A stretch of 64,000 nt of DNA, from assembly GCA_044892505.1 (NCBI GenBank), contig CM097882.1, forward strand, positions 241,056,001 through 241,120,000, written 5' to 3'. Of the stretch, positions 56,601-61,837 are shown in pieces. A program made the translations under genes and the position numbers. The notes under the pieces are model-generated. The model was not told the DNA's origin. It was given only the letters and a program-made list of their open reading frames with translations, and ran no database searches. How positions within the stretch are numbered: the first letter of the stretch is position 1; each line of letters starts with the position of its first letter. Origin of the DNA: Schmidtea nova (lineage: Eukaryota).

Positions 56601-59600
56601 ATCATTTTTCCGAATATCAGGAATCTTCCCCACATTGCCTTCATCATATTCTCTGTGGCTTTCTTGAAATGTGCCGGTGACAACAACAGTTCGTAATTCG
56701 GTCCTTCTCGATAATTCGTTCCTCCCGTTATCGTTACGATATTTGACAGTAATGCTTCTCTTCTTGCCGGGAATAATATATTCTGCCTTGCTGCTTCTAA
56801 ATCCTTTGGACTATAGATTCCGTTGTTTGAGACATCTACGTCGCTGAACTGTCTATCCTTTGACAACTGCATTAGCTCAAATTCTCTTGGTGCTAATACT
56901 TCGGTTCTTCCTGGGAACATTACCCATTTGCCATCTGGCTTCTGATAAAGTGGTCCGTACGCATTACTACAGTTGAACGGATTTGGTTCAAACCCTGGTG
57001 GATTGATGATTCTCGTCACCGGTTGAACATATCGTACTTTTCCTTTATAATCGATTTCTAGTTCGTTTGTACATTGTCCAGGTTTCAACTGCGTTGTTGC
57101 TGCTAGCGATGCGTGTGTCTTTTCGCAAATGTATACATACATTGCCTCTCCAACCACTCTTCCGAAATGTCCTTCTCTCAGTGGTAATAATGGCATCGCG
57201 CTATCTGGATTCGTAATCGCTACGGCCAACTTTGTCTTCAATATTTCTCGATTCAGTATACAATCATTGTTTATCAGATCATAGTACACTTTTTGCAATG
57301 AGGCTTGTCCTCTATGGAATAAGAAATCCATTTTATTATTCACATACAAGTGTAGCTTGATATCCATTGTGTCGATCTTGGGTTTCGCATTCGGCACTTC
57401 TTGTTTCGACACATATATTCCTGGATAGTTTGTTTCGTATACTGTTGTACTGCACTTAAGGGTTGCTTTCCCTTTTATGAATCTCATTCCCACATCCTGA
57501 TTTGTGGTTATCAACACTGTTGGTGTAGTTCTCATCTCTATCCGTTTCTCTTTATGATCTGGTCTCAATTGTCTTTTATTCTCTAAAGCCTCTTTGAGAT
57601 GTTTTGCTCTAGCCTTGTCATCATCGTCCTCTTCTTGAAACGTTTTTCCTTGTATTTCGTCGAACTTTGCTCCTTGTAGCAGTTGTAATTGACATTCGTT
57701 CACTTTTGGTTTGTACACCAAAGTTGACATTCCCGTTTGACACATGCTTCTGTCAATCTTACACATGGATAACGTTTTCATTTCTCCTGTGGTCGGTTCG
57801 AAGAATGCTTCGTAACTTTTCAATTCGACTATGTACGTATCCATCACCACTAAGTTGGTTGCAGGTGCTCCGAATATCGGGTAGGTTTCTCCTTGACAAT
57901 ATCCTTCTCCTCCCGTAATTCGTCCTGCTACATAATACGTCTGCTGTAACATCATTCCTGGTTTTCCTTTTATCTTGATTTTATCTCTTGTTGTTACTTC
58001 TCCGTGTTTGAACAATGCTTCGCAGTCTTCTCCTTGCAACACGATTGGTTCTCTTTCTGTTCCTGGCATGACAATTGCTGAATAATGTCCTCTCCCACAA
58101 TAGAATGCGAATCTCGTCTTCTGTACCTTGCATTCATTCACTATTGTCTTTATTAGTTCTGCCTCTTGATACACGTGATACCATTGTTCCTTTTTGATCT
58201 CTCTTAACTCTACTGGAGTTGCATCTTTGCATTGCTCCGTACCTCTCAATGAGTACTTTTCTCCTAACTTCATTTGATCACAATCAAATACTTCAAATGT
58301 TGTTACACCCTCTGTGCTTAACAACCATACTAACATCATCATGATTATCGAGTTCAAATTCAACGTCGATCTTCCGTTTCCTTGCATCGTTTGTCTATTC
58401 TCCATTTCCCTCAATACTCCTTCAAGTTTCTTTCTCATCACGTTAGACCCTTCTTTTGTCTGGTTCTCTTTTATGAACTTTTCCCATCCTCCTTTCCTGA
58501 GGATATATGGTTCAATTTCTTTCTCGATAATCATCGCCGTATTTTTAATATGTCTTCCCATCGGACTTGACTTCGGACTTCCTCGGCTTAGCGTTAGCAA
58601 GTTGTATATCGTATACGAGATTGCTACTAGATATTTGCTGTCCGTTTCTGCTCCGTTAAGTAGCTTTTTTATTAACATCGTGGTTCCCTGCCAATCTAGA
58701 TGATTCGATTTTGTTTTCGCTTTTATCAATTCTGGCATAATCGGTGCTATTGCATTGTGTAGCATCCTTGCCTTTGTACTGGGTTCGTTTATTCGCCACA
58801 AATTCTTTAATTCCGGGTCAATTATTGCTAACACATCCATTATCGTTTTGGTGAGCCATTCTTCTCCTTGGCAGACTTGATTCTCTTCTTTTCCTCTGAT
58901 TTCTGCGATTTTATCTAATTTCTTCAAGCAAATCTCCCATTGCTCTTGTCTCCTTTCTTCCCTTGTCTTTGGGATTGTTGTTGCTGGATCTATCTTTGGT
59001 CTTCCTCTTGGTCGTTTTTCCATTCCAGTTCCGGTTTCTACAAATCTCGTTGCTCTTCCTGTTTCTTCCGTAACATCTCTTCCTTCGTTTGCTCGTTGTT
59101 CTAACCATCTTTCCATTTCCTGAGTAAACTGTGGTTGTTCTTGCTCGTCTTCTGAATCGTTTACCATTTCTATGACTACCTCCTGTTCCACTCCTTGATC
59201 GTCGATTTCTGCTGGTGACGTTATTGGCATCTCTATTATTCTGTCAAAAATATTCGCCGTTGGTTTTTGAGTCAACTTTGTTAATTCTTCTATCGCTTCA
59301 TCACTGTCTGTTAGTATCTCATCGACGTCATACGCTTCTGGCGGTGTTCTCTCTCTCGTTTTTATTGGTGTTGTCCTTGCTTGTCCCGAACTTGTTCCTG
59401 TGGTCATTGTTGACTTCATCGGACTTGGTGTACTCATGCTTCCTTTCGCTTTCTTTTCCTCTTTAAACTTCAGTGGTTGACCCACTATCTGTGCCACTGT
59501 TAGCGTATTCATTAGATCCAATTGCACTGGTGTCAGCCAGATTTCTAAACTATTATCCAACGATCGTCCTTGATGTTGCAGGTGGAATGGTAGTTCATAC

Positions 59601-61837: not shown

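Follow-up and report, generated by a model that had tools for sequence, protein, structure and literature searches.

The DNA analysed here is a 64,000-nucleotide stretch of Schmidtea nova (contig CM097882.1, positions 241,056,001 to 241,120,000), called the window below and numbered from its first letter. Its minus strand carries a giant Ty3/gypsy retrotransposon in which Gag is followed by a long open reading frame (ORF) whose first part encodes up to four candidate ubiquitin-like domains (Ubls), D1 to D4 (Table 1). The layout shows this Ubl region to be cargo within the polyprotein of a Burro-like giant Ty3/gypsy element. Read along the Pfam matches, the order on the minus strand is zinc knuckles, Ubl region, Env, protease-reverse transcriptase (RT)-RNase H, integrase, ankyrin repeats and RING/zf-TRAF/MATH. 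A Gag with three CCHC knuckles in a pattern scan (about 62401-62571) and a charged tail precedes the protease-RT-RNase H-integrase series, and the ankyrin and MATH/TRAF cargo of Burro-like elements is present, with MATH in a downstream accessory gene. The mononegavirus-type Env follows Gag and comes ahead of Pol, sharing an ORF with protease, RT and RNase H. This 2,728-residue ORF is not in the Gag frame, the change falling between 61900 and 61864, and a second change, between 53807 and 53651, leads into the next frame, that of integrase and ankyrins. The three frames sum to 4,960-5,141 codons. Together with the AT-rich flanks, the resemblance to Burro points to a planarian host. Burro1 proper was rejected as an assignment because there are three frames instead of one ORF of ~5,000 amino acids, no in-frame MATH and no BIR match among the 15 window proteins scanned with Pfam, a scan that ended with the window at 64000, about 360 bases upstream of the Gag frame.

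Table 1 Features of the element and its cargo region, listed from Gag downstream
Feature	Residues	Position (strand)	Evidence or remark
Gag ORF	469 from ATG	61864..63273 (-)	zf-CCHC, E 6.4e-11 (Pfam); frame open from 63636
ORF with Ubl region, Bcl-2-like region, Env, protease, RT, RNase H	2,728	53651..61837 (-)	
D1, candidate Ubl, the weakest	6-83	61589..61822 (-)	secondary-structure order only; pLDDT 38-52
D2, predicted ubiquitin-fold domain, no di-Gly	263-334	60836..61051 (-)	homologue's Atlas model; 36% identity to homologue
Helical bundle between D2 and D3	339-433	60539..60823 (-)	
D3, predicted beta-grasp domain, no di-Gly	437-517	60287..60529 (-)	acidic insertion after helix
Site of the in-frame MATH of homologue P0001		60029..60067 (-)	MATH absent here
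Five-helix domain between D3 and D4	622-711	59705..59974 (-)	best-modelled part of region; pLDDT 58-78
D4, probable Ubl	714-786	59480..59698 (-)	secondary-structure order; inferred position
Helical region ending in BH2-like GGW motif		58448..58960 (-)	Bcl-2-like by eye and published layout; just before Env signal-like stretch
Env: signal-like hydrophobic stretch, Monjiviricetes-type fusion glycoprotein, transmembrane segment near 56629		56438..58348 (-)	PF24664, E 4.4e-71
Aspartic protease, RT, RNase H		53972..55960 (-)	PF00077, 5.4e-9; PF00078, 3.1e-36; PF17917, 3.4e-38
Integrase, ankyrin repeats, long C-terminal part		48399..53807 (-)	PF17921, 6.5e-18; PF00665, 5.8e-12; PF12796, 1.9e-18
TRAF-like accessory gene in two frames: RING, zf-TRAF, coiled coil, MATH		46423..47835 (-)	PF21363, 2.2e-5; PF02176, 1.7e-5; PF22486, 1.5e-26

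An earlier note on this DNA had proposed three to four tandem, integral Ubls after the nucleocapsid. The four stretches it quoted do lie in a single frame (ORF 61837-53651, minus strand), within a few bases of where it had placed them, and its statement that none ends in di-Gly holds for D1-D4: no Gly pair at all follows any of the four, and the sole GG in the first 1,250 residues of the ORF is at amino acid 1116. Because they have no di-Gly, D1-D4 cannot be conjugated. The word tandem was wrong, as the domains are separated by 179, 102 and 196 residues, largely helical or acidic; D1 starts about 190 codons past the third Gag CCHC knuckle, in a different frame. Regarding their number, predicted structure makes it very probable that D2, and highly likely that D3, is an integral, non-conjugatable Ubl; D4 is likely to be one, and for D1 the chances are evenly balanced. 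The cargo part appears to hold two, probably three, perhaps four captured, deeply diverged beta-grasp domains.

The case for D2 comes through a homologue, P0001, in whose Atlas model the domain superposes on ubiquitin-fold parts with a TM score of 0.66-0.73 in all ten matches listed. The predicted structure of D3 likewise superposes on ubiquitin folds, and for D1 and D4 the order of secondary-structure elements in a low-confidence model fits a beta-grasp. A Pro-Asn turn after the first strand is common to D1, D3 and D4. The nearest models and structures to the D1-D4 region are RAD23, ubiquilin, OASL, HERPUD1, BAG6, HOIL-1L and the PI3K ABD; the HOIL-1L UBL matches (probability 0.82 and 0.69; E 0.12-0.2) came without a query range and are assignable to no one domain. 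At E<=10, none of 4 window slices and none of 2 homologue slices matched the ubiquitin (PF00240) or the Rad60-SLD (PF11976) profile. The five-helix domain is compact and conserved in P0001 (36%) and gave no clear fold match.

Pairwise scores among D1-D4 are at background except for D1 against D3 (7/1000 shuffles; one of 15 pairs), for which hhalign returned E 0.009 and a probability of 4. In profile scans over 7,043 residues, cross-matches of D1-D4 ranked below or among unrelated segments. Judged by their sequences, D1-D4 go back to old duplications or to separate captures and do not form a recent repeat. In a register set by eye and numbered as in ubiquitin, the Ile44-type position holds Ile in D2, Lys in D3 and Gln in D4, whereas the homologue has Tyr there in D2 and Met in D3. 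Apparently only D2 keeps the Ile44-type residue, so a common ubiquitin-decoy role for all four is unlikely; that the Ubls may be decoys or adaptors, as the earlier note put it, is plausible.

P0001 (882 amino acids, E 3e-54) was the single homologue of residues 1-800 found among 1.84 billion representatives, and the other homologue searches were empty. It aligns to residues 85-591 and 605-687, with a MATH domain (E 3.2e-28) inserted between; it contains D2 (25 of 70 aligned residues identical) and D3 (29 of 81), lacks D1, and its record ends just before D4. Since P0001 inserts MATH right after D3 while keeping D2 and D3 at 36% identity, the segment takes up ubiquitin-signalling modules. Furthermore, in each of four DNA-type runs from a single study, contigs (1,156-2,082 per run, from 99% to under 90% alike) cover 30 of 30 bins of the region 58300-61840, which therefore belongs to a multi-copy family; no indels were listed in it among these contigs. 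With third codon position as a proxy for synonymous change, 28 of the 40 differing places listed fall there (binomial p 2e-6; 185 further places are outside the list), as expected under selection on the protein. The same is true of 8 of the 10 listed places within D2-D4, and none of the 40 is in D1. Single contigs in two runs join across 59493-60551 and 60745-61610, with short, weak sides, which suggests copies lacking parts of the Ubl region.

The reading that we favour, although we place it a little short of an even chance, is that the captured Ubls are docking modules of a protease-released accessory protein for host signalling. The element's own aspartic protease would cut out what lies between Gag tail and Env signal sequence, and the product would be a cytosolic accessory protein composed of a Ubl, the helical bundle, a Ubl, an optional MATH, the five-helix domain, a Ubl, an acidic linker and the Bcl-2-like domain. 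Its Ubls may serve as non-covalent docking surfaces for ubiquitin ligases, proteasome receptors or complexes of death signalling in the host and, together with the TRAF-like RING protein and the ankyrin repeats, could ensure that the host cell survives or stays quiet during replication of the element. The cargo neighbours (the putative Bcl-2-like domain, TRAF RING/MATH, ankyrin) count in favour of host signalling. The Bcl-2-like region is preceded by an acidic linker and by an AT-hook-like motif at 58994-59017 (minus strand), the latter between D4 and that region. The motif [KR][IV][NC][MAV][ILM], defined post hoc from the sites themselves, occurs five times in 5,120 amino acids (62196, 62046, 61612, 53875 and 52553, minus strand): two of the sites are in the Gag tail, one is at the end of D1, whose last strand coincides with it, one is close to where RNase H joins integrase, and one separates integrase from the ankyrins. 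This placement at domain joints suggests candidate protease sites. In a related element, a captured inhibitor of apoptosis protein (IAP) reportedly shields planarian stem cells against apoptotic death (Lee et al. 2026, as cited in PMC13465017). A more specific proposal, which we hold doubtful, is that Burro-like elements have a conserved multi-Ubl adaptor. Its three or four beta-grasp domains, each diverged on its own and one of them paired with the helical bundle as in BAG1, would be fused to the Bcl-2-like domain and released from the polyprotein as a scaffold that rewires host proteostasis and apoptosis in stem cells alongside the TRAF and IAP cargo.

Several observations weigh against the docking-module reading. 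Both models of this element's region are of low confidence (mean pLDDT 40.7 and 50.1), D2 appears in none of the 50 matches listed for the second, so that its support is indirect, via the homologue, and Foldseek against the PDB gave no match at E<=0.001. The Bcl-2-like region has no Pfam or PDB sequence match. D2 and D3 (36%) show no higher conservation than the linkers (30-36%); binding of ubiquitin receptors by D3 and D4 is doubtful given the Lys and Gln at the Ile44-type position; and docking to host partners, like the activity of the Ubls, is a prediction. With two frame breaks in this copy, moreover, the protein may not be made.

The equal conservation of Ubls and linkers, and an Ile44-type patch whose surface residues, by eye, are not the same in the two homologues, would suit passive domains that act as stable folding units or as spacers of this very long polyprotein and bind no particular partner; we consider this unlikely, as the domains and their order are kept across about 65% divergence while the adjoining MATH came or went. 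The Ubls might instead serve the element itself: at assembly or uncoating they would bind either Gag/nucleocapsid or the complex of RT and integrase. Assembly of ordinary Ty3/gypsy elements needs no Ubl domains, and the remaining cargo points toward host signalling, which leaves this a minor possibility despite the location directly after Gag and the flanking acidic linkers. Its closest analogue is coronavirus nsp3, in which Ubl1 and Ubl2 are likewise non-conjugatable domains of a viral polyprotein beside acidic linkers and Ubl1 is reported to bind the nucleocapsid (PMC9938351, PMC8769549); the virus group is unrelated, no sequence or structure match was seen, and Gag binding here is conjectural.

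The order Ubl then helical bundle recalls BAG1 co-chaperones, and D2 with the bundle could be a captured Ubl-BAG unit linking Hsp70 to the proteasome and working with the Bcl-2-like domain. The BAG likeness is weak and seen in one of two models, with no Pfam BAG match to the bundle, and we judge this origin improbable. A ubiquitin fold inside a polyprotein also calls to mind pestivirus ubiquitin insertions, which are processing signals cut by host deubiquitinases; conjugation to targets or such processing is contradicted here by the missing Gly pair after D1-D4 and is extremely unlikely. Compatible with any of these is the possibility, on which we are evenly divided, that the Ubls number two, D2 and D3, and that D4, D1 or both consist of unrelated alpha/beta sequence, with a protease site at the end of D1. 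D1 and D4 have neither a homologue nor an assigned structural match, D1 is missing from P0001, and its last strand matches the motif of the four other domain joints; against this stand their beta-grasp order of elements, the shared Pro-Asn turn, the position of D4 at a published Ubl site, and the D1-D3 similarity, which does not exceed background in the wider profile scan.

In section 7 of PMC6431247, the Burro/GYPSM1 giant Ty3/gypsy elements of planarians are described with a Ubi2/SUMO-like motif (PF11976) between MATH and BCL2, the one Ubl motif named. They share with the present element the CCHC Gag, Ubl region, a putative Bcl-2-like motif, in-frame mononegavirus-type Env before protease-RT-RNase H, integrase, ankyrins and MATH/TRAF, and their polyproteins of 4,873 and 5,140 amino acids match its summed coding length. 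As MATH falls after D3 in P0001, the published Ubl corresponds by position to D4, a mapping drawn from this one relative with no Burro1 sequence in the comparison, and D2 and D3 are upstream and additional. Compared with that description, the element thus has D2 and D3 as further Ubl folds ahead of the MATH site, and perhaps a fourth Ubl; its MATH is outside the polyprotein, in the TRAF-like gene downstream, whereas the published MATH-less element has its accessory ORF upstream; and, unlike Burro1, this copy has two frame breaks and no BIR match in the ORFs scanned. D1-D4 resemble integral (type II) Ubls such as those of RAD23, ubiquilin, OASL, HERPUD1, BAG6, HOIL-1L and the PI3K ABD in placing a beta-grasp without di-Gly inside a larger protein, but differ in their 10-20% identity, in matching no Pfam family and in having no UBA/STI1 or enzyme partner domain.

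Elements of this kind, with a Ubl at this location, have already been described in print, and what is new is the plurality of Ubls, with at least two further folds on the upstream side of the MATH site. The literature covered contained no mention of more than one Ubl in Burro-type elements, a weak claim given that the primary descriptions (Jurka 2007, Grohme 2018, Lee 2026) fell outside it. The result refines a known system and opens no new one. Burro elements are the largest LTR retrotransposons known, with about half of the polyprotein left unannotated, and a post-Gag array of ubiquitin-fold modules would offer concrete, expressible 75-residue domains for finding host partners.

Elsewhere in the element, the 666 residues after the ankyrins (48402-50399, minus strand) have three hydrophobic segments and Cys-rich beta-like repeats that by eye resemble receptor ectodomains; Pfam gave nothing under E 1 for this part. 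Accessory ORFs at 44575-46333 and 47925-48275 (minus strand) encode a 386-residue long coiled coil, a 174-residue protein with two hydrophobic segments and a 116-residue coiled coil, none with a significant family match. A purine run followed by TG near 44385-44370 (minus strand) is, by eye, the candidate start of a ~3.3 kb 3' long terminal repeat (LTR; about 41070-44385), which holds two ORFs (42840-42205 and 42053-41454) without family matches; the 64-kb window contains no second LTR. It also contains smaller, decayed gypsy-type elements with flanking direct repeats and another RT ORF, at 16905-21307 (+), 23761-29146 (-), 37247-40778 (+) and 8692-9918 (+).
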